A stretch of DNA of 64,000 bases. It comes from Patescibacteria group bacterium (GTDB lineage: Bacteria > Patescibacteriota > Microgenomatia > UBA10105 > UBA927). Positions 17,126 through 57,637 of the stretch are shown piece after piece (positions within the stretch are counted from its first letter, which is position 1; every line of letters begins with the position of its first letter). The stretch spans positions 17,046-81,045 of the forward strand of contig JBBTUH010000028.1 in the NCBI GenBank assembly GCA_038063875.1. Direction: 5' to 3'. The position numbers and the translations under genes are program-made. Under the pieces are notes generated by a model, which did no database searches, was not told the DNA's origin, and saw only the letters and a list, made by a program, of their open reading frames with translations.

Positions 17126-20100
17126 TCATATGTAATGATTCTGTAATCCTGTCAATACATTATTTTTAAATCGGCTCTTCCCTTTGTTCATGTCACGTAT
17201 CACAGCATGTGTTTTGGTGACCGAACTCTCGATAGTGACTAGTTGCTGCGACCATCTATATACTTCAGGTTGTGGCAGTTTTATTTCGTCATTTTCTTCT
17301 AGATTATTACGATTTTTTTGAAATATATTTCTTACTGCGTTAAATAACTCTATCCCCGCTTCTTTCACTTGCGTCACTGCGGGTGAATTGCCTGTCATTT
17401 TTCCTCCGACTACTCCTAGTAGAAACTTCCCGACACGATAGACAAGGTATCCAATCCGGATAGGTGTCTGAATCACGAAAGATATCGCATTTGATACCGC
17501 TGATTGTGTAATAGCGGCAGGTGCCATAACCAATGGGTTTATCTGCGCGCCAAATGCATTGCCCACCATTTGCGCCAAACTATTGATGATAAGAAACGCG
17601 ACGGTTTTACTGGTTGCCGCACGAAGCATTAAATGTCCGACTGGTGTCAATGGCGATGTCACGGCATCGGTAAGTGGCGCAACAGAAAGATTGAAAGGCA
17701 ACGCAAACGCTTCCTCTGTATCTAAAGTATTCCATAATCGTCTCACCGGTACAAAGCGCAATATTTTCTGTTGTGGGGTTGTGGCTTCAAAGACTGGCAC
17801 AGTCTTTTTACCCTGCAACGTCAGAACCGATATGTCACTTACACGATGAATTTCATATCCCTTTGCCTGTAATTGCTCGATCGTTGTTTCTGAAAACAGT
17901 GTCGCGTGGGTAATAGATCTCCACAAAAATGATTGCACTATGTCTACGGGGAGATGGATAAGGTCAGACACAAGAAATACACCAGTTATCACGCGGGCTA
18001 CCACCTGATCATTCTGTTGTAGGTAGGTAATAATTTCTGAAAGAGTAATGGGGTCAACAATACTTGCACCTACAGATTGAAGCATTACGGGTGTTTGCAT
18101 CAAAAAATGAAATATCTCCGGGCCATAAGCATATAAAGATGCTCCAGTAGAAACTATCCCAAGTCCACCCAATAACCAAAATGGCGTTTTCATTTGTGAT
18201 ATATTTTGTAACAAATTTTCATATTTTGCATTTTTCTTTAGATTTGTGACGATGAGTTCTGGTAATTTGTTTTCTTCTGTGATACTAAACCGTCTCGGGC
18301 CCTGTGGCCCTGTAAACAAATTCTGAGGTTTTTTTCCATTGAAAAATGTTTGTATCTGAATCACGAGGCTAGGACGAAGAGTTTCGAGGAGTTGCTGCGC
18401 ATTTACGTTAGGACTATTCGTAAGAAGTGCCTGATACTCTTTCGTTCCCTCAACAGCTGCCACCCAATCATCTATAGTGATTGGTTTCCCATCCAACTCT
18501 TTCTCCAACGCAGGGCGCAAGGACTCAATAAAATCCGCAGTCACAACAGATGTGATATTTTTCACACGAGCTTCCCTTATTTTCTGCGCCTTCACCTCCG
18601 CTTCCTCAAGTGACATGTCAGGATTTAACACAGGTAGCCCAGTATCGGCATACGATAAATACGTAAAGTCATATGATCCTGCCCGAAGCAGTTGCAACGA
18701 CTGTGTTAATTCATCAAATCCGTATGTTTGTAGCATTGCAGAAAAATCGTCATTGTTTTGTTGTTGTCCAATGTCCATTGATACAATTATCCGCTGTACC
18801 ACCTTCATCACAGATTCTGGATTCTGCGATAAAATAGAATCATCCAAAAGCGCTTCAGAATCAATTTCTTTTTGAATATCACGAAGAATTTGCCGTCTAA
18901 AGTGAGACAATCCTCCATTTATTCTCCTTAATTGTGCATCAAAACTATTGACGTAATAATACTTCGCTTCATCAGATAAAAGCTTCACTTCAGACTCTGA
19001 AAGTGATGTACGAATACTATTCGTAGACCATGTTTTTACTTTAGACATATCCCCACGAAATAAACGGCGCTGGAGAGCTACCATAAAATCTTCTGAAGAC
19101 CGTCCATTTCCATCCGGTTTTATATGAAGAAAGTCTGCGATGCTTGACGCCACAAGAGTAAACTCATAAATTTCAGTATCTGAAAATTTTTCGCCATTTG
19201 ATGATTGTTCAAGTACATGGTCAATCTGTGAAAACAACACTTTTGCCAACGGAGAAACGACAGAAAATGGCACAGTAAGTAAAGATGGTCCATTTGAATC
19301 ATCTTCTCCACGAATCATTGTTCCTGCAATATTTTTTACTCTTTCACTTCCAAATAAAAATGACCCATTATCAATTCCATCGGCAGTAAACCAATTTGTT
19401 CTGTCTGCGACAAACCAAATCCAATCAAGGTCTATATTTGGATTTATATACGCAACAACTCGTTCAAGCGGTGTGGCACCCGTCTCGATTGATGCTATCG
19501 TATGAAACATCGTCCTACTGTCCACCGTGTCAAATACCCCATCATCAATAGCATGCCTCACAATATTCGTTCGATCCATAAAGAACGCAAGACCATGACG
19601 CGCAGAATCAGCCTGAAGTAATGTTGAAAAATCCGGATAATCTTCTGTTAAAATATCCGACATTCTCCGCCCAAACATATCATTTGTTATCGATTGAGGT
19701 AAATATCTATCAAGTTTTTTTAAAACAACACTCTGTTCTCCTACCCCCAGACTAGACGATGATGGCACCACATTCAAATTTTTTGGAAATATAAATGGGA
19801 ATACTTTACGCAATTGTTGTCCTGCCCGCACTGTTTTCTGCATCCACAACAAAGCTGAAGGGTAGCGATCAAGATTGAAATTTTTAATCACTCGTCCAAA
19901 TGCGGTACAGCCCGATGTTGCCCCCAAAACGTCTCCATCTTGAGAAAAATCCGCCGCATATACTCGTGATATACTAAAAAGCGGTGTGGGGGTACTCGAG
20001 TAGGAAATCTGTGTTATAGTAGCACTTGGATGATAAGCCAGATTTGACTCTACTCTTGTAGAATCTCCAAAGTCCCCGCGAGGGGATTTTTTGGTGGTAT

Positions 20101-50100: not shown

Positions 50101-53100
50101 GCCGAGTATTTTGAAGCCTCCCTGTCCCGTCGCCGTACACCAATATGCCTTTCGGATCGAATCCATATCCACTTGTTGATCTACTTGATTGCTCCACAAT
50201 AGCATTTACTACTCCCGCTCTATCACTAAATTCTCCTTTAAATTCGCTTGAAGCTTCGTTTCCTTGATGATATTTTTCAAGTGCGGCTATCACCTCTCGT
50301 GAATTTGTCCGAGGATTTCCTGCCTCGTCATGGGTAATAGCATTCTTCTGCAAAAATTCTTCTACTGTTTGTGTGTCTCCTTGCGCCCTCGTCTTTTCAA
50401 ATGCTTGCCTTGCTGCTTCTAGGACTAAATCTTTGTACAATCCTTTTGCCAAATCTGTATCTGCAAGGGAGACGCTTTGTCCTTTTTGTACAAAAAGATC
50501 CTCTCCTATAGATCCTCCATTTTTCACGGTGCTCGCCTTTTCTATGAAATTTTTCGCTAAATCAGAATTAAATACGTCTCGATATTTTTGCGTTCGTATG
50601 GGATCATAGTCAGCTGCCAATCGTGAATCACCGCCGGAAGAAAACTGCATGCTATTTGCGATCACATCAAACTCGTCGATAAGAAGCATGGCTCCTTTTG
50701 TCCCCTCTCGAAACCCTTGCGTGAGAAGATCAGCATTTCTAGAGGCATGAAACTCATAAGGGGTCTCCAGCGTCGGGCTGTAAATGATGTCTGCATCGGA
50801 AAGTATTTGTTTGGCAAGTACATCATTTTGCCCATTGGTGATCTTATGAATACCTTCCGCATCGGCATAAATAATTTCTCTTCCCGAAGGATTGTAATAC
50901 ACTGCCTTTACACCGTTTTTATGGTGTACTAAAGGACTGTAGTCTTTCATCATACCCAAAACATCAGCCCACGAAGTAGCAAGAACGTTTACTTTCGCAC
51001 CGGTGAGCTTTACTTTTGCATCAGCAATTGCATTAAGAAGAAATGCAGATTTTCCTAAACCCGTCTGCCCGTTAAACAAAACACCTTTGACTGAACCAGA
51101 TATTTCCGTATCAAACAATGCTTTAATAAAAATTTCTGACTGATCTACTCGGGTCAAATGATCAGGCCCAATCATTTCGGAAATTCTTTCCTCTGTGGCT
51201 GTCGATAAATTTTCTTCTATTTTCTTTAAAAAGCTCGATGCTTCTTCAAGCATTTGTCTCGCTGCTTCTGTAGGCGGCCTACCGACGCCTGATTCTTTTG
51301 CCTGATTATCAATCAACTCTAGCTGTTTCTGCGCATTTCGCTCAATATGAAACCCTTCATTCTTCATCACATCTGCAACAACTGATAACTTACCAAGCGT
51401 GTTTGCTATCGCAACTTGCTTTTCAATCGATATTTCCTTCGGTCCAAACCACTTATATCTAAGGCTTGATGTATACGTCTTATCTTTTGCGTTTGCGATT
51501 GCCAACGCCTCATCGGCTTTCACCGTCAGTTCTTTTATCGCTTTATCAAAGGACTCAATATCTTTTGTTTGTTCAGTGGTTGGAGCTCCTCCTGCCTTTT
51601 CTACCAATGCACGTCTATTGGCAACAGCATCAGTCACCAAAGTAAGTGCGTCTGTATACTCAAGTCGCGCAGTATATACTGCCTCACGAACAGATTTCCC
51701 TGTTATAGCATCACTTATTGCTTCTCGAATCGGCTTCGTCGCCAAATCAAATCTTCCTCGCAACGAGCCTGCCTTAGCCAGCTCTGCCTGTTTTGCTATA
51801 ACCTCTCCACGTATCTTTGCACTGTTTTGTGACAATGATTGCATTTCTTGTGATTTATTATTTGCTGCAGCTACAGATCGCTCAGCTATACCTTTTGCAA
51901 ATATTCCATCCGCTTCAAGTTTGTTGAGCGATTCAAGCGCTTCCTTCGTGCGCGCGAGCATGCGTTCCGTTTCTTTAATTACTGATTCTGGCTGATTTGC
52001 ACGCGCTTTTAATTCTGCCAAATAGTCACTTGTTGCTTTGAGTGTTTTTTCATATGTTTCTTTCACCTTTGGCAACTGCGATGGATCCTTAATCACTTCA
52101 TTTTCTATAAGAATTTGGGTTTGTTTGGCTTCCACGTCGACAAGTCCATCCTTTCCTTCTTTGCCATACTGCAATTCTCGAATAGCTTGTGAGATCGTTC
52201 GCTCAATCGGTGTTTTCCGCGCTTCTATGGCAAGAGCTTTTGTAAGTTCTGTCGCTTGCAGTGCCGCAAGATATTTAGAAGACGTATTGCCCTCGGTACT
52301 TGCTATAGCTGAAAGTTCTTTGGCAGCGAGTCTATATGCCGCGAGTTCTTTCGTTTCTCTACCCGTCAATCTATCAAGAAGCGACCGATCAGGAGCACTC
52401 AGCGCTACTTTTTCCGCATTGTAACTCTGCTCTGCTGCTCGCACTGCCAATCGTGCTGATTCAACTTTTTGTATTGCCAACACTTGCTCAACCGGCACGA
52501 GCAACCCTGCTTGATTTTCAGTTTCACCCGTAGAAATAGTTCTCTTTACTACACCATCCGCATCTACAAATCGTTTTAAGACCTCCAAACTTTCCAAAAG
52601 GTTTTTGCCCACGACGGTTTGTTTGGCACTCGAATCATTCGCAAGCTGTTTTGAGAGCTCGAGCAGTTGATACGTCTCCCGCGCGACCGCATTTGTCGTA
52701 ATTCCGAGCCTGTTATTCACTTCAGACTGCATGCTCAATCTCGTCGCGTCTGTTATTTCAATTCCACCTATTGTTAATTTCTGGCCATTTTTCCAATTAA
52801 CAAGCGCTACCTTGTCCGCTATCGCTTGTGCCTGCTCAATATAGGGATTTTCTATAGTAGTAGGTTTACCAACGGCTTGTGTCTGTGCCAACTGCCCCTT
52901 AGAAAGCCCCGCCATCATGATAGTCGTTGCACATTGCTCAAACGGTACGCTTCCCGCAGCCGCTGCCGCACACGCGACTGCAGCTTGCCCGGTGTTTGTG
53001 TATAAATCCAAGCGTCCGATCGCTGTATTTGTCGTTTGCGAAATTATTGGTGACCCTTTTGGAACAAGGCTTGCAAGCCCTGTCACCGCTCGAGCACCCA

Positions 53101-56100
53101 TAACGGTTGCCATGCTAATGGAAAGCGCACAGTCGACCGTCAAGCGTCCTGCTTTACCACATGTGTCTGCTGCATTTAACGTAAATACTGTTGTTCCGAG
53201 TGCGTCACGGCCAATATGTGCAGCAGTGCTTTCGATAGGACTATATACATTCCGTATCAAACCACGTACGACATCGTCAGAAGAAGCGATAATCGCCTGT
53301 GCTGACAACCCTTCAGCATCTGCAAATGTTCTGAGTTTTAACACTGCATCATCAGCAGGAGCTATACGCGCGAGTATTTTTGCACCGCGTGAAGTTTTTG
53401 CCACAGCATCAGTCACAATACCGACGCCTGCTCCCGTTTCTACTGCTGCAGTACGAGCTAACGCGTTGACAGCTTTTAACCCAGAAAGTGATGACCATCC
53501 TGCAAACGCAGTCATACCAATAGATCTTCCACATGCCCAACCGTCCATACCTTGATACCATGTACACGCTTCTGTCGTGTCTTGCAGGCTTGTTCCCGTC
53601 ATATAAATTCCCATTGCATTTCCTGCAATTGATAAACCAGCTGTAGATACAATTCCTGTGCTAATTGCGCGAACAAGCTGAGCTCCGGGAAGAGCTATGG
53701 ATAAAAGTGTAGCTGTGGGTTTAGCAGCCTGCATGGTGTAACCACGAACTTGATCCCAAATTTCTTGGCCGCAATTTGAATTTTCTTTTACCTCATTCCC
53801 GCTGCATACTGCAAAAACATGCGCATTCTCTTTCAGTAGCTGGCCCTTGAGAAATCCACCATTTTCAAATTTGTTAAGAGCCAAGGCAGCGCTAACTAAT
53901 GGGCTATTCTTTTTTAAATCAGAAAGTGCTGCAGATGCCGCTACTGCGTCGTAGGTTCCATCCAACACTTTCTCAAACGTAATATCGACCCCTCCTGATC
54001 CCATAAGAAACTGGAGCTCTTGATCCCGAAGAAGTGCCGCCATCTGTATTTTTTGCTGCTCTATCGGTAACGTAGACGTAGTTTTGTTGTTCTCAAGATA
54101 AGAAGAAGCAATGATATCCGCCTGCTGATCTAAAAGAATCGACTTTTTTGCATCTATAGCTTCTGTGTATGCACGATTACGATAGTTTGCAGACGCACCA
54201 AACTGTCCTGTCACAGACGCTAACTCTGATTTGTATTTCTCTTGCCAAAGCGCCATTTCCTGTGCATACGTGTCTATATTTACGCCGCTTAGCGCTGCTC
54301 GTTCAAGCCACTTGGGATCAAAGGCTGCAAACCCATCTTTATTTTCTATGACATATCCGTACCCAGCGCTCATCCGGTCGGTCTCTGTATAGGCAGCAGC
54401 CACATTGTGCACCATATACTCGTATACATCGTCTTTTTTAGGATCAAGCGCGGCCGTTTTTTTCCACGTTTCAAACGCTTCCTTTTTTTCAGGATCTATA
54501 GCTAACTGCACCTTGTATTCAGAGAGCGCTATTGTAGCGTCGCTATACCGTATGTCTGCAGCTCGCAGTGCTGCGGCATCAAGATCCACTTGCGTTCGGA
54601 ATCTCTGGCTCAAAAAGGTATCGGGGTTTGCAAAGAAAACTGAACTAATCTTTACTCCTGCATCGATATTTTTATATTCCTCAATTGGTTTTATTTCTCC
54701 ATTCTTAATTTTTTCTATAAGCGCCGTCTCGCTATCCGTATCATTTGCCCGTACATATCCTGCAGCTTCAAATTTAGGTTTATGATTCAGATAAAATGAT
54801 AATTCTGATACCAGAGGGTCTTCTGCTGGAAGATCCGAAAAAATGCCTTTTGCCTTATTGTCTGCCACAAATTTGGTCACACTCCACCGATCAGCAGACC
54901 ACGCTTGCGTGCTTCGAACAAACGTGCTAAAAAAGTCATTTCCCTCTCGAAGCACTGGTTTGACTCCATCATCAGGTTTACCACTTCCAAACCAACCACC
55001 GGTAAGTACAACATCATTTTTTATGACAGGGTGCAACCGCTCTAGTTCTGCAATTGGATCCAATTGCCCTTTCGCAATCTTATTTAAATTCGTTTCAAGA
55101 TTGCCGGCGTTCTCCCATTCAACACGCAGCAAACCTATAGCCTTCTGTACCTCTGCGTCATACGTTTCACGAGAGGTGTCTTTTCCTTTATTTTTTGAGT
55201 CATTCTTCCAGTCTTCATATGAGACGTTCTGTGAACTACGCTCATTTAACGCCGTAACAAACGCTTGATCTTCTTTTGATAAAACTGCGAACACCTTTGC
55301 TGGGCGAAGATTTCTATCAGTGATTGTTCCCGCGAGTGCTGCCACTGCCGCCTCTGTAGTAGTAAATCGCGTTGTTGTAGAAATTTTCCCATCTTTTTTT
55401 GCCTGATTAAACGCATTCAGAATAGCTGCCTCATCTTTACTACCCATAAGTAATAGTTGTGATAACTGCAAATCATAAAGCCTGCTATTCACCGCACCAA
55501 GTTGGGTCGGCGCATTCTTTTTTGTAAAGTCTACAATCGTTTTGGTGACAAATTCAGGCTCACCACACTTATTCTTGTCCATTGTTGCAGTGACAAGCAT
55601 GCCGCAGAGAAGTCCCTCTACGCCAGGAGAGTCTTTATCAAGCATTGCAAGAAATATATCTGCACGCTGTGTCGCCACTTTTGCTGCTTCTGCAGCACCC
55701 AATAGTGGCGTAAGCTTCTTTTCAACTATATCTTGCGCAGTCTTAGTAGTACATTTCGGATCACCGTTACATAATCTTGTATTACTTTCATACAACGCGG
55801 TATATTTTCGCTGCTGTTGATATCCTTGATCAAGAATTTTTGCGATTTCTGCTTTTTGCTCCTCAGTCGTGGAAGAGGAGGCACTAACCTGCGCTCGTAC
55901 TTGCGCTTGAAGTGTTGACAACTCTTTTGACACATTTTGACAAGGATTTTCTGCTACTCCTCCTCTTCCTTTTATTGTTGATGGCTCTATTAAAGCCAAA
56001 CATTGCCCCATTTCTGCGTTTTTCAATACATATTCATACGTCAACTTCCCCAAAACAACCTCTTTATAATGAATTTCCCGTTTTTCTGCTGTATCCAAGC

Positions 56101-57325
56101 CAAGAGCGGTGAGCTTCTCATCAGCTTTTGCTTTCGCAAGATCCAATTTGGTTTTAATATCAACACAACTTTTTCGACGATCTTCATCCTCCATACAGTC
56201 GTTATACAAATCCTGCAGTGAAAGATACGAATCCGTTGCGGTTACACTTTGTTTATTCAGAAATTTGTTTTGCTGGAGCTTAGTATCTTCTTCTTTGGTA
56301 AAGCCAAAATTGGCTTCCAATACTTTTTTCGCATCGCTGACATCTTTAGAAATATCCTCGCAACCAATTGCTGACCGATTTTTTTCTAAACAACCATTGA
56401 GCGTATCAACCAGTGCCAAATACTCATCTATTTTTTTATTCTTCTCAATAGTTTCTAGCACCGTTGCTTTCCACGTTTTCCCCACACCGCTACCGAGTAA
56501 ATCTCCTTGACCATCTTTAAGATCTTTTATTGCTTCTTGATGACAAACTGAATCAGTTTTCCCACCACTCATACACGCAAGGTATGTATTTTGCTGCGCA
56601 TTATAGAGGACAAGCTCATCCTGATACATTTTGGTATCTTTTGAATCAATTGGAACTATTGTAAGCGGACAACCTGGACACGCCTGCCATGTGCCAACTC
56701 CCCCTTTGTTAACACATTGTCGACGTACCGTCCCCGACACTGGATCTTTTGCACCACCTATAGCTACGTTTCCTTCTGAAATTGTATTTTTCCCATCTGC
56801 TCCAGGACAAAATATGACTGCTGGTTTTGGTGTAGGAGCCACTGTACTTACTGTCGGAAGCGGGACTATCGTTGTGGCCACCGTAGGCAACGGATCACTA
56901 TCTAACGTCGGAGCTTTCGTTGGAAGTCCTATCGCAGCATCTCCTCCCTGACAATATGCAAGGTATATGCCAGACAGCCCTGCACAAGGATCATCTGGAT
57001 TTTCTTCCCCTTTTTCAATGATTATTGGTTTCGCTGGTTTCAGCGATGCACCAATACCAGTGGATCCATTATCGTTTATGACGCGCGCGAAATTCCGTAG
57101 ATCTGCTATGCCTCTGATTTGCAACTGTCGTGCAGTAATAAAAATACCACTGGCAACGAATGTAAAAATGATAATCCCAAGTATTGGCGCAAACCCCTGC
57201 TGTCTCTTATTATAATATTGAAGATAACAATCTATAAAGAAATAGATCAATCGTGGATATTTTGAAGCTGTTTGTGATTTTTTTTGTTCATATATTTTTT
57301 GTGATAAAAATTCTTGTATTTTCAA
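17126..57325 (-). CDS. Giant multidomain megaprotein (13,399 aa) with N-terminal signal anchor, Cys-rich and coiled-coil regions, and embedded ATPase, phosphatase, kinase-like and peptidase-like modules
   Basis: A single uninterrupted 40,200-nt ORF. It has a TTG start with an AGAGGA Shine-Dalgarno 8 nt upstream. Diagnostic motifs were located directly in the DNA: Walker A 'GQTGLGKS' (~51.05 kb), 'LLIDEFD', 'GFTGTP', 'GSGRGTDI', 'QGIGRFRE', PP2C 'VDGMGGMG' (~44.68 kb), 'GGGAQANVV...VVVKVY...HGDLNTV...FLDQVG' (~27.4 kb), 'YGHNLML...FMLFDHG' (~39.85 kb) and 'HEKLH' (~20.74 kb). Confidence 0.8.
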   Translation of the reverse strand: MKIQEFLSQKIYEQKKSQTASKYPRLIYFFIDCYLQYYNKRQQGFAPILGIIIFTFVASGIFITARQLQIRGIADLRNFARVINDNGSTGIGASLKPAKPIIIEKGEENPDDPCAGLSGIYLAYCQGGDAAIGLPTKAPTLDSDPLPTVATTIVPLPTVSTVAPTPKPAVIFCPGADGKNTISEGNVAIGGAKDPVSGTVRRQCVNKGGVGTWQACPGCPLTIVPIDSKDTKMYQDELVLYNAQQNTYLACMSGGKTDSVCHQEAIKDLKDGQGDLLGSGVGKTWKATVLETIEKNKKIDEYLALVDTLNGCLEKNRSAIGCEDISKDVSDAKKVLEANFGFTKEEDTKLQQNKFLNKQSVTATDSYLSLQDLYNDCMEDEDRRKSCVDIKTKLDLAKAKADEKLTALGLDTAEKREIHYKEVVLGKLTYEYVLKNAEMGQCLALIEPSTIKGRGGVAENPCQNVSKELSTLQAQVRAQVSASSSTTEEQKAEIAKILDQGYQQQRKYTALYESNTRLCNGDPKCTTKTAQDIVEKKLTPLLGAAEAAKVATQRADIFLAMLDKDSPGVEGLLCGMLVTATMDKNKCGEPEFVTKTIVDFTKKNAPTQLGAVNSRLYDLQLSQLLLMGSKDEAAILNAFNQAKKDGKISTTTRFTTTEAAVAALAGTITDRNLRPAKVFAVLSKEDQAFVTALNERSSQNVSYEDWKNDSKNKGKDTSRETYDAEVQKAIGLLRVEWENAGNLETNLNKIAKGQLDPIAELERLHPVIKNDVVLTGGWFGSGKPDDGVKPVLREGNDFFSTFVRSTQAWSADRWSVTKFVADNKAKGIFSDLPAEDPLVSELSFYLNHKPKFEAAGYVRANDTDSETALIEKIKNGEIKPIEEYKNIDAGVKISSVFFANPDTFLSQRFRTQVDLDAAALRAADIRYSDATIALSEYKVQLAIDPEKKEAFETWKKTAALDPKKDDVYEYMVHNVAAAYTETDRMSAGYGYVIENKDGFAAFDPKWLERAALSGVNIDTYAQEMALWQEKYKSELASVTGQFGASANYRNRAYTEAIDAKKSILLDQQADIIASSYLENNKTTSTLPIEQQKIQMAALLRDQELQFLMGSGGVDITFEKVLDGTYDAVAASAALSDLKKNSPLVSAALALNKFENGGFLKGQLLKENAHVFAVCSGNEVKENSNCGQEIWDQVRGYTMQAAKPTATLLSIALPGAQLVRAISTGIVSTAGLSIAGNAMGIYMTGTSLQDTTEACTWYQGMDGWACGRSIGMTAFAGWSSLSGLKAVNALARTAAVETGAGVGIVTDAVAKTSRGAKILARIAPADDAVLKLRTFADAEGLSAQAIIASSDDVVRGLIRNVYSPIESTAAHIGRDALGTTVFTLNAADTCGKAGRLTVDCALSISMATVMGARAVTGLASLVPKGSPIISQTTNTAIGRLDLYTNTGQAAVACAAAAAGSVPFEQCATTIMMAGLSKGQLAQTQAVGKPTTIENPYIEQAQAIADKVALVNWKNGQKLTIGGIEITDATRLSMQSEVNNRLGITTNAVARETYQLLELSKQLANDSSAKQTVVGKNLLESLEVLKRFVDADGVVKRTISTGETENQAGLLVPVEQVLAIQKVESARLAVRAAEQSYNAEKVALSAPDRSLLDRLTGRETKELAAYRLAAKELSAIASTEGNTSSKYLAALQATELTKALAIEARKTPIERTISQAIRELQYGKEGKDGLVDVEAKQTQILIENEVIKDPSQLPKVKETYEKTLKATSDYLAELKARANQPESVIKETERMLARTKEALESLNKLEADGIFAKGIAERSVAAANNKSQEMQSLSQNSAKIRGEVIAKQAELAKAGSLRGRFDLATKPIREAISDAITGKSVREAVYTARLEYTDALTLVTDAVANRRALVEKAGGAPTTEQTKDIESFDKAIKELTVKADEALAIANAKDKTYTSSLRYKWFGPKEISIEKQVAIANTLGKLSVVADVMKNEGFHIERNAQKQLELIDNQAKESGVGRPPTEAARQMLEEASSFLKKIEENLSTATEERISEMIGPDHLTRVDQSEIFIKALFDTEISGSVKGVLFNGQTGLGKSAFLLNAIADAKVKLTGAKVNVLATSWADVLGMMKDYSPLVHHKNGVKAVYYNPSGREIIYADAEGIHKITNGQNDVLAKQILSDADIIYSPTLETPYEFHASRNADLLTQGFREGTKGAMLLIDEFDVIANSMQFSSGGDSRLAADYDPIRTQKYRDVFNSDLAKNFIEKASTVKNGGSIGEDLFVQKGQSVSLADTDLAKGLYKDLVLEAARQAFEKTRAQGDTQTVEEFLQKNAITHDEAGNPRTNSREVIAALEKYHQGNEASSEFKGEFSDRAGVVNAIVEQSSRSTSGYGFDPKGILVYGDGTGRLQNTRPQALYEALALDTVGQMIKNSLRNKPFTHDQANAFIDQVTVSLQGESSSWKQTLGTGHYADRLYGFTGTPESIILDAQLSLDMQLVVPGVKKLTSIIQIFGSESTKPVKYSEWFGAKDVDNANIELGTEGVARIVLEMPDYSKEITLQSLRKKTNALGDDVEMIVINNDTNIAENEKVVFYDQDGKIKRTIIGDNEKTAIQRFEEEYAYKNRAGKKFVMIFDQGSGRGTDIQGVFTPSDASYLFGSSKTLTQTSAAQGIGRFREIPEKTTVYLLDGQAADGLTPIALEEAGSRLLANETASTQISITNSLIHGYSDMVKNTIDSLAKMVKQYGGEDFTMNYEGREMSLSDGLKLQFDKVGGVNDALTESSQVGTVAIQKAATRTRDFINSIRSTPEFTKLPIQVREYYLKNIYNYEDVPIALQAGSPTESTVRPSLQGATRITDRTALINKAIFESDIAATIGREGRQTPQTSTREQIAQLERAAAARSVESTKVAVDAIGQAKTVMEKAISGKSITPEERHILSLAQQERSRLVVRQQTFIVQKSLALPDSPELEQLNTQIAQIETILAPIANSTDAQITDALKADAIKRIKSSLTKSGIQNINQLSVAGLNIAAAAMVTYENAVSRQVGLMGTNAQSDQAKATILDQTKGEKETLIKALDQILLASGVIFKNKALQNAQSDLRIAMEANIGQIVTFSDGALDKVRDVEHKKALVEEMSQAITAPLIASLEEAPLQKVLAYQQTRLQQATNATQPSRALVFGQFIAKNWQAFRQAFIPTILKPQDLVKFVPSRAQVPKIPIDQPVPQGAIVSPTSNTLAAPAVLLAALVKAEQSLNIAVLARASAMKNESVTGTGYQALSIVNITDGLKTGDVVRYVASDGNTYNLRIDNPADFAYAFRANSTDVFFSRGADSSTLKYDPSNSAVLLFPQGLSIRNGSTEQAFIQRNRNVINLSTATIYRPNVATVIAPQKLQELEQRAAAMEQAKLSFNTIHTALEAHIQQQLTQALGITNPTPDVTAALGLAAANITVTLLEQMESGVISNAYDQTTTGSVQKLLIAIANLSDPNQTITNVIGSILADARNVTPEQIAQVITGQVAQSQPQIPASLTLSQRWDMVKHWLISPNPFAVFNRSLPLSERAGQLAVWTTLRVAVPFGIGLVNPLAAGYYVTATWGWDIARFVTWPVRAPVVALANALMRTPLARDFILGERIITVLSDTNPSIWRGLWKSVLMRPTVINILAGSREGFWEHYYNARFLALGDTNTSLGNRFWQTVTSVTRFFTAPHMLGMRMVQSAVMRANSTPTVPYRSPLSDLPITEPNEWSLDGYLYSFIPRSILNATPRNNTVVWALTRVGLFLTPFPLSTISHSLWAYDVHRFLSDGYKTPNFLNASQGRLRFLYWDLHWPESPLKYFARVRSYKLADHVTSSIVAQQVAPIPVAPVTVPVTSVDLAIYELMGVISGNQTVYFGLTVSGEIVFANNQTGITTQYAHVNLKNVNDIESLNLVIDADGVVDAQDNPVVKSTSIDIPVDQTTYQFGNKKILFSRNTDGSYTVYKEKIIAPVVQTAPVSGYKYIAGATNISMQANNPVEVDAKVEVTYTADGVTTTTRATVKSNENESGGLSDGGLLYWIVKLDGGDQYLKVPVAGVSIVYVTEPLAQQTQADGLVVLQNTIDDLKRKQVEYERLVVEANTRREELETYKKESLPQAIQKANEEVSNFTKELADITRVVDEQKRLLQGIGQQHIALRASIATLQSQIPAVAPSSDIGIAEDKGTKYLKNANPMEDAALVVRNVTGITAFGSVMMVEVDGMGGMGSKGSGAVAAQIIKNRVAEIYFNEISIPSNGRIDIQSRLYETFDRLNQEIRNADLAGGGAVVDITILEEVNGKQIAHVIHTGDAETWVVRNGTAFLLMKDHSIVGELLEMGEVTVKEAGEHPMSNVVYGALQGNNENLSHVVRESFEVQEGDVLISVSDGVIDPLRWHNKIYNNRNFANKTGVPGGFFVDVTKGKTNGKEIAQEIVSQVRALADAKVKKAGGKVDNISAGVIVVGKSFGKFQENTVELTQKQTELDNSLQLARKVQAQLQVLQARQAVVVTRLSNAQQNASNLESNTLDTQITQVETSLAINTTSLEETKVKLQQAESELGLAKTVVERQQEIGDILQKLIAQGFNVTNFVLLQEYLLDQVKLGQAFSALISNIIEHTQADVVLLEQLQTTFLSALPPAGFVRMTIEASDVFTRIALVLEDARSKVTDDRVAIDPTTSSTTITPATVNVVVDESALQAEAEKQEATLVEKFNALLKDQKDRLPGSIAAARAELATYIAQAITTGKSLTTQSKEAATRVAINVAARIAEKVAQQASVTSVGNAVNLKPAPVIEEISIIKSLLLQFPIELLRAERSYVEGTLGKEKVAFLVQLLSSSLEKAGVQFVPKATTLDGIFTALSDQSFLVSIDAIINRDTAIKIQGQLEFALDGLKTVNADVEKEKQSFGARVKERVEVFQEAIEIPLEEQPDKVAKLLPLLLELQETGLAISDTKPTTVDGVIAAVTGGITNYGGTAPATRASADVILPIIGQMEDVIDANFFFTNELEALKRADSVLQSGVVPVALLSAGDEFVEQEVENLGINVTTEFQDLSSALTETARANPKACDDCLKLKDQFIDLFTNIAKALSQGRHEDAKGDLETILAMVEADREKHAEKKDGNEMLFSTAAYFANQKLAQIMRILNKPDEAKRYSKASNDDRLKLANELVKASKKPVENKEVIDAVGSFINTMYLSDFDAIMKMKIADDPQTELEALVDVLKQTETLSTNPVLAVLERLGAKVVNTLSGYTIPTLREIYDDKIIEAQKYVDGLENKQAVPLDKEVAFVEQDKVEAIRDALNKEFDSNKETNGIRVSLQKTSRGVGLVMDGSSSLLDKIEIVFLKPDPFVSDALNHTLIPVLLGQSGLSVIPVISKLDATDPGKGFGPKVLAIIEKVVIEQKFGGLGVLENETPLSLKFWVGQKYILADTKDNEDELINASKANTMFKVFDTSKLPADTDGLKKIKSIEADIIAWLSLAKEVGLYSDIGKSNQPPISQEQLHKKVQEKSNQYIAGKLTPDSLKPEFQAPLIKAIELAFKGVVIPVATYDAVINALNQSEVQKPLTDLKAAIDKNTDGALEYLTGFVQALLLGDISQGSVIGLINDMTKIWVDPQSVLAGHEAPTTEVEFMLSYTVVVQKYLKLASFKLQSANLTLITERVMKALYSHYKATQLSINTIDLSIDSDNKIYEYIQSGKIVSTILDDTWVIRALPNAEDNSRIVYELTNRSNLERFIVKPVGDYLGLAEYRRLPEDAVQSRLVNPVSYVSPSHLFYIAPLVVGVEFGAIYEALPPAELAPLYINFIEKLSKNHMYIDDVELIYGHNLMLVKKDDGTYTFMLFDHGSYKYRPKLSVDEIRRYTVGYFSLLFTVILDRPQFDLYLPYDYKSKQLSSVAMARMMTVYEFLRLYQDKYNETIEVTPALFNKEPINSSEVPFLVPSTQQEYVDLLLQAVIWREEAIQKGSIRIKQTTDEVPLTKEDFIELFESIKNGLQKIRAFTLEDWQLYIRIGEEKPFIYKDPDGEIIALLAAKNAPKKSILDIQADVVRTAWFTEDGKEFTAFGTLKKLFSIDTVFASWVRSIESGDTNAPGRTQKKLTDFASTFVDTLLVRGRKSITDLDKIDAQAEKAVKTISEKLRALIKNNGDLPMSEAKLIEFFDLFAADKKFTKLEQYITFLLIGDENSNADLAVRLSTAAQVAANVRSSLRTTLIDPMLQTIYQVQQDVNAVSVSATEADSTTALLLRTITNYNAVAPKDLQYRETDRVILDSITDRINAFVLFLRKYNVWSEGESIPVSAKIEVQKILDQFANIVGLTSATEKQIVARVLATLTAGDLTNVPSDSAEIIRALTQNATWNEDHVSPHLVQAIDNNLVEELLKVYARTIISITVNTDQIPTVLTQEQLALKALEKSSSEWVREGVSEADFLKTHRTEIENTLTKFSPNFKSITTDSYNQIVADIAQYLLMRKSGDAPGGGASSPFALITEYLGNFSQAIWLTGNELRVGGRLDVIQDALIPVVVPSSVVTGFPRIRQFTAYVNTRKKLQDLRVARRLREVAQQSVAREADRLTREQAQVAQKKRIAIDALVTDIGEQQKVEEAERIRQIDANILLTTVQSVILKDEYVKNAIVGGYSEQVVQTTIQGVLDKNNVTDEIFALLNLKKSDWISGTTQTLNKTYANDIKKAQTQRRDSEDQVYKDMASWSRSVAAVFKALDEVDSSITTPQLVGRSLLTGVTPVVGPVVELTLPFSSGVSRSIQTGSQIRQLTALMQLGTLKNIFVTNSALHKLIVFGGSEEQLQARIDAMLVDKRRNISATLFVDAKRDYPEWRQEVIEKARQTYATERLAQMEKEDEALQQKVDAFFATQDASEQLRVSKVDAQEQARLQKIVDEEKKLRAAEKRSVHREELRQQIAERRAQISPLVQGLQSLAARISFFPLSNTSRVATRTLKNALNTAGLTVTRETPLSLLEELDVLLKDKALDRIKTVEKIEAISEAFLAFETVLQLQLDRQVGKLLRSVTAKIGQSEERLFDQASVSDQARLDISAITTSLDAEKQLALQLEQLRAEQDRRAVLEIAAVKQAAELAPSIEKRAAEVRKANQSISNPQVLLLTAVAGEALTPALVPPIALWNMFGEVQKVMDEASFMMDLGEPALTAYGLGLFYVDKPITVPLTESQIKAAELLKLRQKQLAREESTAFIAKLESEESKAAWRTAHRQLLITGLLESLPVIQDALRVRTADFLLFATHRDGPVVQAYLNGAKKSEISLLLRQRLKEEGITSDDILLARGMSDKEFINEMYKSIETWLGDVKDQPQAARAVIPQRTGEIMESVLGPEKGIALALQYEMYLNDREAVRVQLQADIKQSFAERDIAENAAFNHGFEQISGVAEAQQYLSFVLGEVVAQLTNKKEERTQAKLFIAHVFTNNLTEIQKRVMATVIIGDSVSTMKSKIEKIVRTVLEEDQRLESDEQASSFIPAYARLVTERAMEELTQWDAQVADVYRQNLVEEALYRNDRVSFNLIKRKLRDDGWFDGISLLPSVFLQNRAQNILNIDKKAIDGVVDAYRRWYSEQTEFIVDTLIEKETLDTQGLETLLHARLGDWFTEQSEVERASAIRGLARRLNETQNSLIAQKQKEDARQKWYEELVKTSGVLLTDITLLRDASELLLFDKPGSFQIAGIARVALRSIIRSRIDEAVRSVIDSSMTSKQRENSINKQVEITLGRLETISVFVPFIKQFDTRDTSPLVYFIQTANLTDILAAAERFEQVLLLGADQYIILHERLTQAISGYSDDEALAEFVEAELVSETIFPEVARQVNGASVSLSYELDMIVARALIANARLEVAKVEKQTLVGEISVLLRQLKKSSPDIRLQVNGKPLEVEYSRLISVFESVDGPEAITDNIKIDIERARFYLDVAPKIQVTSEERRNIIITTGEKETRLAKPGFFASLGKWGPTRVVRDGVVGLVHAWVKPFSFEYSGTKQAANLGIMALRDGWMWIRGGPIGILPWIAHDGLRLVEQIIPSDSLKAIVRTSRDFVLFPNWWDASVPTNFRFVQGFIHIFTRGILFVTGNPLFVPVIVHDISRFALYQIERVEERAVATAVSLDTAQVGSRAVRFNLDTVKKQTTNLVITFPDNTDVVTMNLTKDPYKKTWLQWVGDGLKWTAGVTIGVLSIAYGLLSVVIWLNVAFSPTPQLPIREPAAIIQQIQTNPETASPSETSAPVDTATAQLPTETATTTQQDQYEESIQQDWIDSQSAKNPLVAFMSKGIYRWAVNQRVLLANLEGESFWLRIVGVANPTDEQKKAVFENPIVSFLILGMDSHLNSIGDEDPNIPITSTKNDQNIIVFLNTQTGEFSFIALSRKFFMADGSQINDAMGKLLPKDPAGITFQQNILFPIVSDGNQNDPMVNARLRFEWLTGRPIDSVTAFGFNGFRDAINALYPNGITITSIATITDALDDKLATRTIFESGVEYTMDGATLLDYVRLRHGEGFLGDSTGGRTVRLAQVIGEISKDLAKRVENDNGFESLLVELQHILAIIQQGKSFETDTPWVGSNGELDQGLLFDLIRRDQIARDFAGEQHKTLTDYFLYYLVQNLHAITLIPQESSLGIIKLPFLSAYNILLGPGYLPTWNNKESFGEWTYKQLDVDAVRNYYKPFQDIITNEIYKEDAQAAFKVQPIPAQSNLMSGQVKKSINTWKAKAAIIARHNADYQKELTFKREGVTSFDERRYDAEFDEYFKGPDARRSLVREAIMYWWKALWQLDTSLKQSVQYLFSQNFSPEVKRISNTAQNVEQPVVTAPAKVQPIPTQQSITQAIRQVRQRIDPRFALQAVRAGKALHRAYDPIVIPAQQVVRNVTSSIQNRACGSAMLIEKVYAQDGGGLSNPCAFSNVIGVTEEAVAFGMEPPIISILDNVHQLYDRFIATWSQFRVLILGVESITPQTDTYTSDDIISSLAEQFRLDDQRVRAIAEEANIDVSKIHPIVLLAQLPRLILEQEPSRMSQASGNKTMLSTLLYLHSTELSSNDRTIVIDELLRKMKFEIGLVNSENTFQQEKVVGTLLRTIISIRNTKIIREEIRRIIGTSLFADNQDVLVHLGLEQMVFSALIKDDQSLMHNYSDDEFRQRLTQLDTDALRLIQELKKGADAHGAIRFDAPTINTVLVDLLSKGIKLLRLTDTSIGQSMTEFFYDHPIFENIYIPFQSWNIHFVPISVKQNHDYDALTMGLGLVDMDSFVSRLRSLSAFSRPRKLVGSTNLVMAAFAVNNLGFTLDDRWDVNTPNGVVSGKDALQYIVANQDQFPQISLVHISISTRELFRTWSQDRIQRLIARAKKNERANRLTAIMAQTVGVDEELIRSNTRITIDEKQSLVNEKPAQPAAEYVMDKIRAWMPAPETILQSSFLKWSTPFFARFSLNTAQSRIAIDEQTRVEDENDRTPLPTPLISQLRPTKDDEYLISHALLTEGYLNTEIPQKGVSINDYAAFGIQSGVAMVSDGVSVLRGEFINSQKGAIRLFNNIIDFFKSDKIGQIRKATWVWTQENLERFRQVLNGELASSERVLAEELGQFPTTGVIAKLLPNNKIMMIRIGDAEARILRNGKIYHMGQLYDAQGVPLFKGSILQPLLEAGDAVQAYDSVETSAPKVFGYGKLSVEQIHISIYQLQPGDRIMLSSDWVSKVSQSKIPDRFNSVDDVIEEVLQRSQNPKQAAEKLSTLGYSNGVPIDDLGTQFIFFQQQLPVENPKKKELVAGSGSTSDIKLPANQFPDEAFRLRTENGLLYIKTSSAFQYKLNAEHLKKDEWTPLTEGAILDLGTLYPTIKVGKDRQINLSFNVDVPLGIYVPQSYFDLPGVRTDVSTANSTSSQPESFWKKITGSAALLLPRQLGSATGADPTVLSNILTVIGNLLNQYVAPWFVPYVAPLLTNISSISSLPTQIRAALQPGTWRYAREEIKLIPDRIQLVLKIGLQAFGAPHYTLFGDGSLVFVTKDRIGGGAQANVVIGYRKAPQSKAFERVVVKVYHDTSLLNDPPPDFRERRRIDVSTDELFRASLNGQEMAIQPISSRVKPAFYGWVKDANNINQMAVMEYIQGKSLLQAINDTESLTDKIILYKKLQSALETLYLDTQLPHGDLNTVVASQPKYVNALVTPEGEIVFLDQVGIARYIFDEEYFASHGIPSSIDPKDLPRLFHELEKQLLAQDIQQIEYLAVGSIDLKTIRSEKASRLEELQKYINNDDIQNEVYQSMERGAMVLLVSSYDSTPALVIIMDEKIKNVRIVLADGQDESALTGDVYVKQSLQALATYFSDWEIIAPTGVSMYIQSQKLMQAEAPTHRSPFSENDSFRKQQGEVVAATIVQAFLTFSDRSPTDPFAKVFKTLLLGDPAVLTLFTEHFFDPLHQKSLPPLTRDMFDKKSLAQLSDPDEWLAAMNISGQMPQMTYRSSVWLLLEALGWRVLRVDDVQELFNANKSAKNVWDQHTVGDHLLKKIMWLFDKARDKIKDGSRQYAYLRVTGDKYAIIVRDIHAVKNASNPLTQAFDVLLSDQKMLYVKDRIVSQSIGLHTSFEEKLSLEDLSRIDRQKFMLAAKNQKPYTGEQIQNYRKTHPRLNAILDSIDTLDTNDEGFKTFLTQVVATLMVDDLLEDTANDVQSALQKENPDETLRVFPDVVRVIETVRTTKGYGNAVRMLRVGFAGVLKHVNTDFEKTLGDVAGDELIKKQFRPVVEHVTREFLRKTGVTAQIVFHPSANDFIIMLPQGTLVDIEVLRTALGNALRDLSIGGVQYYSHPSLSITDVVFTDAGSTTEQEAANIVIIDNAFAVLAQASNQDALSSIDTHFFLNGLPRQDLPVHHWDWLRRYLSTNVVLEKRGPIRLAELGVTEKERLKLVSIEPENKFEKDEDVLAATAWQKLIGGFVHRYGEKDLPVWERAVEAMKKWWGDQQVLHIIDPNLARLFNLTTTFDTGNAAVSEEILKTVFSTGIGTNTRMSSEYVSPKTTALLQQAGYDAQTLDKVYKSSGNERLAIQKSILEKLPDSEWVTVYYTIGNSDERVIPGYFGRFGDTTDATKVRLYASSKEAVNSTLHLRYSSPSLVNIIGIRLPKAMVVSENEALYLNNAYAATEPEVGRVVEERVAQNTRLNITPTRATNYVSWIPEELVVEIVSDINELIVSQFKRTIPFENPIRAENIALEIDKTTEQAKLIKDLAYYSPQLYVPTMSPRELLVLLEELQIKFTQKVLLGKDIYVYLSDPIKIPFQDRSFALGVVYTHGQPQYRMFYKSNSGESWRVIPSIEPLQSGDKTPSSFVNSSTRYILSKGIGEQDTVLPAEIQVALDEKIVSGSFVDLSGYISFSDGDKIAALFDSIIPRTQKVDPTYTAEFELPTNSTSGMESFWPFLATGRGYAVDTTTYLDTDMPDFAHGLRGSYEVVGGPLKHQKKNYIFTSINQNITYMFSYDEVSHYVQTILIEDTDSSINSYGVHSRPLQTFYAMLPAYEHRGPQASKDAVEIGDREYVDQYKWISQFPLNRAFSTWLKTQGTPVVTYEDLITSAVDNSGCGSSGFLHIPSVFAADSGCAILSVGMEVQEVEAELTRVIPKEGGYYWYEGMKAPTTKYDSKTPIKAPFGKQVTLYKDQKKTQALFTFIASTEFKGSSVIQQNAPAIDTGNAANILAVPAKEVNSIQKVRLQPLWQRAWGAVRKWWGGPEITHVENEVLLKKLKYPGKVIDLPEYSSGSGPKSAIIYNSPKDENVVVYRGINDATLVFDQTSNIIRYDPQNPLLIEAVNNFVNNPSPERFNLMRVSTINPELLKNLDLLESSINKYLSSGNPYGDLGLTYKDAVIVTNVFSNSGEVTPTNLSPYVSASTDITQASRYTGGEKTGGVLILSIHKERLEHVNNYEVALKLEVKPEEIVAYIPYNHDGDSPYINESLEKAAAYIKALSVEHATVDTIQVVQGKPWWQRAQVFVRTTVGKVKKWWGDQGIPHFAEPIQMQLWERMGELWQGVRKQWVGQQVRLAIRDEIPKSIKILIDRIQRVEESFIQIDESLQDQIMNELNVYENLSISDRKWIARHVVRDILALDTKQKDIWDSFQNAADLGDYIPVHEESAIAASDAFNREQAVVERDQFTTIPDFVSSQVQFNFPFGTVAEKKRVIGAIISKEVQKSGLPAQFVSTLASLMYQLLPGYQYAIDYPSDPVNDITIVRSLPVGARGSATGGGLIIAQSIIDDPVWAAVEMLHEKLHIFLIGNRTARVNHDESQELVVTTLQYLIADKVGLSTKKFEEIFYWKGAQGLIFILQTLKEAKLFDWDTEEGKLALYRMSANGDFSELIIPFAQLRGYDASQIIGYFHLTTDEVFGNWGKNIDQQNSILNGPFGLSESNSRFGFDQIRTRENATQNQISFEGALIKTRAFAGSIMRAIFGDVKTLNDKELQKKAQLEALQKECGGGDSVADTTKKSPRGDFGDSTRVESNLAYHPSATITQISYSSTPTPLFSISRVYAADFSQDGDVLGATSGCTAFGRVIKNFNLDRYPSALLWMQKTVRAGQQLRKVFPFIFPKNLNVVPSSSSLGVGEQSVVLKKLDRYLPQSITNDMFGRRMSDILTEDYPDFSTLLQADSARHGLAFFMDRTNIVRHAIDDGVFDTVDSRTMFHTIASIETGATPLERVVAYINPNIDLDWIWFVADRTNWFTADGIDNGSFLFGSERVKNIAGTMIRGEDDSNGPSLLTVPFSVVSPLAKVLFSQIDHVLEQSSNGEKFSDTEIYEFTLVASSIADFLHIKPDGNGRSSEDFMVALQRRLFRGDMSKVKTWSTNSIRTSLSESEVKLLSDEAKYYYVNSFDAQLRRINGGLSHFRRQILRDIQKEIDSEALLDDSILSQNPESVMKVVQRIIVSMDIGQQQNNDDFSAMLQTYGFDELTQSLQLLRAGSYDFTYLSYADTGLPVLNPDMSLEEAEVKAQKIREARVKNITSVVTADFIESLRPALEKELDGKPITIDDWVAAVEGTKEYQALLTNSPNVNAQQLLETLRPSLVIQIQTFFNGKKPQNLFTGPQGPRRFSITEENKLPELIVTNLKKNAKYENLLQNISQMKTPFWLLGGLGIVSTGASLYAYGPEIFHFLMQTPVMLQSVGASIVDPITLSEIITYLQQNDQVVARVITGVFLVSDLIHLPVDIVQSFLWRSITHATLFSETTIEQLQAKGYEIHRVSDISVLTLQGKKTVPVFEATTPQQKILRFVPVRRLWNTLDTEEAFALPFNLSVAPLTDAVTSPLTPVGHLMLRAATSKTVAFLIINSLAQMVGNAFGAQINPLVMAPAAITQSAVSNAISFVIQTPIRIGYLVYRVGKFLLGVVGGKMTGNSPAVTQVKEAGIELFNAVRNIFQKNRNNLEENDEIKLPQPEVYRWSQQLVTIESSVTKTHAVIRDMNKGKSRFKNNVLTGLQNHYI

Positions 57326-57430
57326 AAAATAAATCCTCTTACTATTACTATGATTCGTATATAGCTACCCTGTCAAGCTGAAAATTTTGGTTCTTGACAA
57401 CCACTCCCCATTTTCGTCTACACTAAAGTC

Positions 57431-57637
57431 ATGAGAAAGAAACTCCATCATAAAAAATCAAAAGCTGTACGCACGCGTAAACCAAAAGAATCTTTTCTCG
57501 TTCTTATCAGAAGTTGGATGCTTCTTGTTATGTTTGCGCTCATGTTGGGACTAGGAGCTGTGGTCGGCACATTCTTTAACGATAAGACTGCAGAATCAGC
57601 ACCAACGGTCGCTGGTGTTTCTATAGAAGCTAACTAA
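57431..57637 (+). CDS. Small bitopic membrane protein (hypothetical)
   Basis: The 68-aa protein has an N-terminal Lys/Arg-rich segment (MRKKLHHKKSKAVRTRKPK), one TM helix (MLLVMFALMLGLGAVVGTFF) and a short tail. It is divergent from the giant gene, and a TTGACA hexamer lies about 35 bp upstream. Confidence 0.35.
   Translation: MRKKLHHKKSKAVRTRKPKESFLVLIRSWMLLVMFALMLGLGAVVGTFFNDKTAESAPTVAGVSIEAN

Follow-up and report, generated by a model that had tools for sequence, protein, structure and literature searches.

Does a single open reading frame (ORF) of 40.2 kb in an ultra-small bacterium represent one real gene and, if so, what kind of protein does it encode? We addressed this question for a 64,000-nucleotide stretch of DNA from a Patescibacteria group bacterium (GenBank assembly GCA_038063875.1, contig JBBTUH010000028.1, positions 17,046 to 81,045), hereafter the window, with positions counted from its first letter. 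The giant ORF at 17126..57325 is a genuine, selectively maintained single gene. Our preferred reading, held at a probability of about 0.5, is that it is a giant gene from a clade within the Candidate Phyla Radiation (CPR) whose product is a membrane-anchored, non-repetitive, modular cell-envelope protein.

An uninterrupted coding frame of 13,399 codons

The original prediction had placed the ORF at 17126..57325 without a strand; we confirmed these limits and assigned the ORF to the minus strand, with 13,399 codons plus stop and a TTG start. Our own translation contains a single stop, the terminal one. At this base composition one would expect a stop every ~15 codons, and a run of 13,399 codons free of stops has a chance of ~1e-400; the two other same-strand frames across the ORF contain 926 and 1,040 stops. 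The coding signal is uniform: the order GC1 > GC2 > GC3 was observed in each of fourteen 1,000-codon bins, and codon usage correlated with that of neighbouring genes (r = 0.54–0.76) along the whole ORF in frame 0 only. The predicted ribosome-binding site (RBS) and TTG start were likewise recovered, with AAGAGGA at 57340-57334 followed by an 8-nt spacer to TTG at 57325-57323. A putative promoter, TTGACA-18-CATAGT, lies upstream at 57376-57347 by consensus match (promoter-like site and RBS together, 57334..57376, minus strand). Because no in-frame ATG occurs within the first ~230 codons, the RBS-backed TTG is the best start.

Independent assemblies and selection on the giant gene

We considered whether the ORF might instead be an artefact or a decaying locus, in which a chimeric or collapsed assembly, a series of fused pseudogenes, or a phage or mobile insertion is read as one frame. 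Two observations favour such an explanation: for ~95% of the protein, databases contain no homolog outside the clade, and a long-read assembly in the European Nucleotide Archive (ENA) calls the giant locus as ~20 small ORFs. When aa 3601-4833 were used in a word-indexed search against 5.8 billion proteins, one cluster only was returned, consisting of fragments of the same locus in that assembly (ERZ1286166) and two ORFs of 4,102 and 4,052 aa from other contigs. The fragments are collinear and lie on a 996-kb long-read contig of a sibling strain (contig_442; hereafter L001), in which the adjacent M23 peptidase gene is also split. Over the 5' 11.7 kb of the giant gene, L001 is 98.7–99.1% identical to the window and differs from it by 18 indels, the majority of which are 1-nt deletions in A6–A8 homopolymers; because the deletions sit in such runs, we attribute the frame-breaks of L001 to long-read error. 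Homopolymer errors thus shred the giant gene into ~20 "hypothetical proteins" in L001 and in L007 (ENA long-read contig_3783, a relative), and giant genes are probably under-counted in public databases built from long-read assemblies.

The substitutions between L001 and the giant gene were 104 synonymous and 50 nonsynonymous (30/14/110 at the three codon positions), which corresponds to a dN/dS of ~0.15, where random changes would be 23% synonymous. This ratio indicates purifying selection on the giant gene. An alignment scan of GTDB species representatives with the motor core of the protein (described below) identified four metagenome-assembled genomes (MAGs) with an ortholog, and the homologous frame is open in all four from its start after the tRNA genes through the whole of the fetched locus, over no fewer than 6,000 codons (>18 kb); the orthologous frame on a further Joint Genome Institute (JGI) metagenome contig is likewise open over >18 kb.

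Neither internal protein repeats nor tandem DNA repeats were found in the giant ORF, so that an assembly collapse is ruled out, there being no repeats to collapse. A phage or mobile-element origin was rejected as well, since 2.9 million viral contigs contained no relatives of the giant gene and its chromosomal synteny is kept. Independent contigs are collinear with the giant protein across aa 1-6907 and again across 8169-12953; the stretch in between (aa ~6907-8169) and the final ~450 aa (12953-13399) are covered, among the assemblies fetched, by the window alone. Taken together, the homopolymer nature of the long-read breaks (shared by the M23 neighbour), the purifying selection, the uniform coding statistics, the five independent assemblies with open frames, the collinear contigs and the conserved synteny largely refute an artefact except in those two stretches, and we regard it as very improbable, in agreement with the original argument that the ORF is no frame or assembly artefact.

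A conserved N-terminal core with an SF2-type ATPase

The first ~3,200–3,800 aa form a conserved core composed of a transmembrane (TM) anchor, helices with putative cysteine staples, an Ala/Gly-rich block, a linker, a superfamily 2 (SF2) ATPase and Trp-rich hairpins (all features encoded within the giant ORF are on the minus strand). Against the four GTDB orthologs, aa ~80-3200 aligned as a single high-scoring segment pair with 61–63% and 32–33% identity, and past aa 3480-3800 only patches align.

The best-conserved part of the whole protein is the motor block at aa 2040-2760 (49046..51208; 75–93% identity in two species, 45–57% in two more), which carries ordered, family-conserved motifs: Walker A GQTGLGKS (2086), Walker B LLIDEFD (2214), motif III GFTGTP (2472), motif V GRGTDI (2633) and motif VI QGIGRFR (2664). 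Of the eight motor-family members, four matched Pfam ResIII, at best with E 0.0016, and DEAD was matched at E 0.05. Searched as a profile against the PDB, the block gave no match. Its AlphaFold2 (AF2) model was poor, with a predicted local distance difference test score (pLDDT) of 43; Foldseek returned nothing at E <= 1e-3 for this model, and the marginal matches were all SF2 ATPases, with SecA2/SecA at ranks 19 and 24. Pfam scans on 1,400-aa and 1,000-aa tiles of the whole protein gave no match to PF07517 (SecA_DEAD, to E <= 5) or to the SecA preprotein-binding domain. Motif V is SecA-like, and motif III fits Snf2 equally. Judged from these motifs, we place the block among the SF2 ATPases as a divergent member resembling both SecA and Snf2; a SecA_DEAD assignment would at most be tentative.

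Simple hydropathy scales identified two confident TM helices (aa 45-63 and 8145-8163) and a few weak candidates, and hydrophobic windows were fewer in the giant protein than in shuffled sequence (11 versus 39). TM helix 1 (aa 45-63; 57137..57193; Hessa sum -0.5) is preceded by a conserved FFIDCY and is present in all four GTDB orthologs. It is followed by a helix-rich region (aa 64-1170; 53816..57136) with C-x5-20-C pairs every ~60–65 aa, which probably form disulfide-stapled hairpins. Cysteines are concentrated at this end of the protein: 27 of 35 fall within aa 1-1465, as C-x5-20-C pairs at helix-turn-helix positions, a single CxxC lies in aa 1466-8842, and three more pairs follow TM helix 2. 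In a five-species alignment the cysteine columns are mostly C, in a region that is overall 13–35% identical. From this pattern we infer structural disulfides in an exposed, fast-evolving domain, and aa 64-1170 are probably extracytoplasmic.

The next block (aa 1171-1480; 52886..53815) is rich in Ala/Gly/Ser/Thr, has moderate hydrophobicity and three or four conserved cysteine pairs, and shows 34–83% conservation in orthologs. It is a candidate membrane-embedded block, and its counterpart in P0015, a 7,512-aa relative described below, contains a clear TM helix. A long helix-rich, coiled-coil-like linker (aa 1481-2039; 51209..52885; 54–55% helix formers), without a domain match in the Pfam tile scans, connects this block to the motor. 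The conserved core ends with a Trp/Pro-rich amphipathic hairpin block (aa 3480-3810; 45896..46888) that is 26–31% identical to all orthologs, which have clear TM hairpins right after it.

In-frame cassettes and probable exchange of modules

The middle of the protein turns over fast, and in-frame cassettes come and go between near-identical strains. The clearest case is a strain-variable cassette of 1,337 codons (aa 3913-5249; 41579..45589), which includes a PP2C domain and is absent from both L001 and P0004, a sibling-strain ORF from another, short-read contig. The cassette-less junction (...ESLNL|EAQKY...) is clean in both, with flanks ~99% and 84–96% identical. Past the cassette, the sibling shares only patches of 40–50% identity with the giant protein. 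The variable region of P0004 (aa ~1665-4102) had no Pfam match; by eye, it contains two protein-kinase-like stretches (G-loop/VAIK-like) and a C-terminal ParB-like "NGHHRF", all of which are absent from the giant protein. Different strains may carry different enzyme cassettes.

In the genomes with GTDB orthologs, the flanking Rho is 82–97% identical whereas the giant core is 32–63% identical, and the giant gene therefore evolves much faster than its neighbours. The C-terminal ~5,000 aa consist of modules shuffled between lineages, including those with the Fic-like and HExxH motifs described below. Most of these modules are 35–50% identical to L007, whereas one 600-aa module (aa 11919-12523) is 85–91% identical. 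L007 also contains, at 12710-19266, several partial copies of the aa ~12,290-12,520 module at 36% to 90% identity, a pattern that suggests recent intragenic duplication or exchange. The uneven module identity together with the partial copies argues for recombinational module exchange.

Enzyme domains and motifs outside the core

The original prediction described several well-formed enzyme motifs and called the protein unusually information-rich in catalytic domains. A Pfam tile scan, which it had proposed as a check, returned across all tiles one above-threshold match in 13,399 aa, the partial LytR_cpsA_psr domain at aa 8393-8492; with ~95% of the protein dark, the description as information-rich was overstated. 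Among the motifs, PP2C, LytR-CpsA-Psr (LCP) and the SF2 ATPase stood, Fic-like and HExxH stood at the level of motifs, and a kinase and a second PP2C did not. Very long PDB queries were insensitive and missed even the LCP domain.

The LCP domain (aa ~8240-8510; 31796..32608) matched Pfam PF03816 at E 3e-6 (27.5–28 bits, the cutoff being 24.6; the match spans profile positions 58-147 of 150). TM helix 2 (aa 8145-8163; 32837..32893) was assigned from hydropathy, lies ~100–200 aa upstream and is followed by an acidic Pro/Thr-rich linker; the charges at its flanks favour an N-in/C-out orientation. The LCP block of P0015 matched the giant protein with an independent E-value of 1e-18 and Pfam with E 7e-12 (46 bits), and the block is 40% identical to L007.

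Within the strain-variable cassette, aa 4193-4386 (44168..44749) form a PP2C-type Ser/Thr phosphatase domain, which phmmer against the PDB matched to Stp1 (2pk0) and PstP (1txo/2cm1) with E 3e-11 over ~180 residues. The motifs DGMGG, GDxx (GDAE), hP..N and SDG are aligned, and MED upstream and DNIS downstream were read directly; Pfam gave a sub-threshold SpoIIE match (E 0.008–0.03). The domain is apparently competent. The best non-self match of this verified PP2C among 89 tiles was aa ~9460-9690 (28256..28948; E 0.07), a possible degenerate second PP2C-like region. For a kinase and second PP2C read by eye at aa 9,460-10,150, the region aa 9421-10200 gave no PDB match, the one hint being that weak internal match (E 0.07); they are not claimed here, nor is a GGDEF-like "SANDF" seen by eye at aa ~10,700.

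Two further assignments are at motif level only. The module at aa 11919-12523 (19757..21571) contains the single HEKLH (HExxH) of the giant protein (aa 12195-12199; 20729-20743), against 0.03 expected by chance, and may be zincin-like on the motif alone; HEKLH falls in a predicted helix of a very low-confidence AF2 model. The block at aa 12576-12953 (18467..19600) contains HIKPDGNGRSSE (aa 12734-12745; 19091-19126), which is Fic-like (HxxxDGNGR) at this level: compared with the Fic motif HxFx(D/E)GNGRxxR, the H, D and GNGR are correctly spaced, while F and the final R are replaced. The 30-residue island around HIKPDGNGRSSE differs from L007 by two substitutions, in a block that is 38% identical as a whole. 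This Fic-like block matched nothing in the Pfam tile scans or in PDB profile searches, and an AF2 model of aa 12090-12960 was unusable (pLDDT 33). Near the C-terminus, moderately hydrophobic segments at aa 13049-13260 (17546..18181; Hessa sums 3.6–5.6) could possibly, on weak hydropathy, provide an additional membrane anchor.

Distribution and chromosomal context of the giant gene

The family proved very rare and confined to a narrow clade: phmmer with the motor block against 1.84 billion representatives gave 8 matches, mostly fragments from close relatives together with P0015, and word-indexed searches with segments of the giant protein returned strain fragments only. The family is also present in the four GTDB species and two metagenome loci. 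One ortholog-bearing GTDB MAG is Candidatus Gottesmanbacteria bacterium nzgw410, which makes the CPR context suggested at the outset plausible, and the name of the JGI metagenome contig, Hain-H43-01um, indicates groundwater and a 0.1-µm filter fraction. The giant gene probably belongs to a small CPR clade of Gottesmanbacteria-like Microgenomates from groundwater. Three of the loci, L003, L004 and L005 (CAYIBX01, CAYIXE01 and CAZNKB01), are titled "uncultured Gammaproteobacteria bacterium"; they share the Rho/M23/tRNA-Ala/giant locus with the Gottesmanbacteria MAG, with flanking proteins 75–97% identical, and the titles are probably mislabels.

The neighbours of the giant gene encode Rho, a LysM-M23 peptidase, a DUF2298 membrane protein, YfhO-like proteins, a GT87/NPCBM protein and an AAA_14/DUF4143 ATPase; the GC content is ~41%. 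Directly upstream, tRNA-Ala(GGC) and tRNA-Ala(CGC) (57678..57836, minus strand) serve as a synteny anchor, and the order Rho, LysM-M23, tRNA-Ala(CGC), tRNA-Ala(GGC), giant gene is common to L001, L003, L005 and L006. Between the tRNA pair and the giant gene lies a divergent gene for a 68-aa single-pass membrane protein (MRKKLHHKKSKAVRTRKPKESFLVLIRSWMLLVMFALMLGLGAVVG...; 57431..57637, plus strand), which is found at the same position in L001 and L003-L006 with 58–100% identity and could be a partner specific to the giant protein. Given the purifying selection and the conserved position in at least six lineages, the giant gene clearly matters to the organism; with the 996-kb contig of the sibling as yardstick, it takes up ~4% of coding capacity.

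P0015 is collinear with the giant protein in four blocks and is followed by orthologs of the downstream YfhO-like (48% identity) and GT87/NPCBM (52%) proteins; because these downstream genes are orthologous, we consider it a positional ortholog. In the window, the YfhO-like (711 aa) and GT87/NPCBM (580 aa) proteins are encoded near the giant gene at 10802-14667 on the plus strand, and at the P0015 locus (L002, 28013-32168) two sulfatase genes intervene beside their counterparts. The YfhO-like and GT87/NPCBM genes may make up a set of envelope-glycan genes that is conserved in linkage with the giant gene.

Comparison with known giant proteins and modular systems

The closest described kind consists of the very large or giant membrane proteins with SecA_DEAD that occur in Omnitrophota ("Archaeovorins") and Actinobacteriota (West-Roberts et al., bioRxiv 10.1101/2023.11.21.568195), the likeness being one of outline, and the comparison with CPR and Omnitrophota giant genes made in the original prediction was apt at the level of kind. 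Those proteins have a divergent SecA_DEAD domain, for which a role in self-export or insertion has been proposed, and TM segments, and some have Ser/Thr phosphatases (bioRxiv 10.1101/2023.11.21.568195). In the same work "large" denotes >10,000 aa and "giant" at least 30,000 aa, so that the present protein, at 13,399 aa, is "large" and not "giant" by that usage, and CPR is not among the phyla listed as enriched in >10-kaa proteins (bioRxiv 10.1101/2023.11.21.568195). The protein resembles them in being non-repetitive, >10,000 aa long, encoded by an ultra-small bacterium, mostly unannotatable and membrane-anchored with a domain-poor N-terminal region, in its embedded fast-evolving SF2 motor with the SecA-like motif V GRGTDI, and in its Ser/Thr phosphatase domain. 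It differs in its host phylum (CPR/Patescibacteria) and shows no detectable homology to them, as HMMER searches over the 1.84 billion representatives recovered clade members only. Simple hydropathy scales give two confident TM helices here, versus numerous ones in those proteins. Their SecA_DEAD has no counterpart here in a PF07517 or SecA preprotein-binding match, and the Pfam tiles gave no glycoside hydrolase, glycosyltransferase, methyltransferase, peptidase, NUDIX, dockerin/TSP3 or beta-helix match. The internal TM-LCP module and the putatively cysteine-stapled helical hairpins are particular to the present protein, and no type II secretion genes adjoin it in the window.

MARTX, Rhs and CdiA systems share with the giant protein a conserved N-terminal part, variable recombining modules and candidate effectors (PP2C, Fic-like and zincin-like here). 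However, no RTX, RHS, FHA-1, pre-toxin or autoprocessing cysteine protease domain and no adjacent immunity gene was found, and the variation includes internal cassettes, not just the C-terminal tip. As in LCP ligases, a TM helix precedes an LCP domain above the Pfam gathering threshold (aa 8145-8510), but canonical LCP ligases are stand-alone proteins of ~300–500 aa, whereas this module lies 8,100 aa into a 13.4-kaa protein. Staphylococcal Ebh/Embp are likewise of the ~10-kaa class, helix-rich and membrane- or wall-associated; they consist of many tandem repeats, whereas the giant protein is repeat-free and has enzymatic domains. The hypervariable PTD-repeat gene of Gracilibacterium (bioRxiv 10.1101/595074) was set aside as a comparator, being a different, repeat-driven phenomenon.

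The searchable literature yielded no report of a comparable protein from Gottesmanbacteria or from CPR otherwise, and very large non-repetitive proteins of ultra-small host-dependent bacteria are a recognised knowledge gap. The present gene brings CPR into a theme known from Omnitrophota and Actinobacteriota, that of giant proteins carrying an SF2/SecA-like motor in cis, and adds a mid-protein LCP module and a 1,337-codon cassette cleanly gained or lost between strains that are 99% identical, which is a natural experiment on giant-gene evolution and module function. The interest of the locus lies in this combination, in a conserved 13.4-kaa gene occupying ~4% of a streamlined genome, of a mid-protein LCP domain and in-frame cassette exchange.

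Proposed function and alternatives

According to our preferred reading of a modular cell-envelope protein, the cysteine-stapled N-terminal region and the part following TM helix 2, from LCP onward, would lie outside the cell, with the ATPase and PP2C in the cytoplasm. By analogy with the SecA_DEAD giants, the in-cis SF2 (SecA/Snf2-like) motor might power the giant protein's own insertion, export or remodelling. The LCP module would tie the protein to wall-glycopolymer/peptidoglycan chemistry, consistent with the envelope-gene neighbours, and the fast-evolving exposed parts and swappable cassettes could serve to contact or manipulate partner or host cells. A role in host attachment or attack is plausible by analogy and from the fast evolution of the cysteine-stapled region and the strain-variable cassettes. 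Several points weigh against this reading. The product is known from its gene sequence alone, ~95% of it is without an assignable fold, no adhesin-type domains were detected in it, and for a SecA-type motor there is no SecA_DEAD match in Pfam, no match of the profile in the PDB and a poor AF2 model. Moreover, with the two confident TM helices alone, the ATPase would share one side of the membrane with the cysteine-rich region; we infer an extra crossing from the weakly hydrophobic segments and the orthologs. Fic-like or kinase-like chemistry after TM helix 2 would need ATP, which is odd extracytoplasmically, and would fit if the modules act inside another cell or if the topology differs.

Two other explanations accept the gene as real. 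In one, the protein is a polymorphic mega-effector or toxin platform along the lines of MARTX, Rhs and CdiA, whose N-terminal ~3.8 kaa would traffic and anchor it and whose variable modules would be delivered into host or competitor cells. In its favour are the conserved N-terminus, after which identity between strains drops abruptly, the in-frame cassette gain and loss, and the recombinational exchange indicated by modules of 85–91% versus 35–50% identity between the same two genomes and by partial duplicates; PP2C and Fic-type chemistries are typical effector activities, and the variable region of P0004 shows other motifs by eye (kinase-like G-loops, ParB-like GHHR). Yet the effector calls beyond PP2C are at motif level only, and the PP2C cassette itself falls on the predicted cytoplasmic side of TM helix 2. 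Nor did the Pfam tile scans detect pre-toxin, RHS, RTX, autoprocessing cysteine protease or secretion-targeting domains, and there is no obvious cognate immunity gene downstream, where the PIN/antitoxin and MNT-type genes described in the last section are generic toxin–antitoxin modules. We consider this platform unlikely.

The other explanation dispenses with a direct host role and sees a housekeeping envelope scaffold that couples cytoplasmic Ser/Thr-phosphatase signalling to LCP wall-polymer ligation. The best PP2C matches are Stp1 and PstP, which regulate cell-wall growth in Gram-positive bacteria, but sibling strains do without the PP2C cassette. A TM helix followed by LCP is the canonical topology of LCP proteins, the giant gene lies among envelope genes, and all relatives found share the conserved, syntenic locus; a housekeeping function is nevertheless hard to reconcile with a gene that evolves far faster than the flanking housekeeping genes and is confined to a narrow clade (8 matches among 1.84 billion representatives), and 13 kaa is hard to rationalise in a ~1-Mb genome. 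A scaffold of this kind thus appears doubtful to us.

The modular cell-envelope protein that we prefer also admits a bolder form, which we regard as rather improbable: a CPR-specific, self-contained interaction machine of a class not described before, in which an envelope-spanning polypeptide would extrude or remodel its multi-kiloresidue C-terminal arm by means of the SF2 motor it carries and would present or deliver strain-swappable enzyme cassettes (PP2C, Fic-like, zincin-like and others) to the host. If true, it would be a one-gene secretion-plus-effector system that evolves by in-frame cassette exchange.

Small genes downstream of the giant gene

Three small genes directly downstream of the giant gene, at 16351-16991 (minus strand) and 15963-16283 (plus strand), were called by eye. 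They comprise a PIN-domain-like toxin ORF (131 aa), which overlaps an antitoxin-like ORF (82 aa), and an MNT-type nucleotidyltransferase-like ORF (106 aa, "LFGSHAEGHATKDSDYDL"). A perfect 7-bp tandem repeat (TTGTATG x 3.6) is located at 17001-17025, ~100 bp past the giant-gene stop, and overlaps a strong promoter-like site (TTGACA-17-TACAAT; 17028-17000, minus strand) that would putatively drive the antitoxin/PIN pair.

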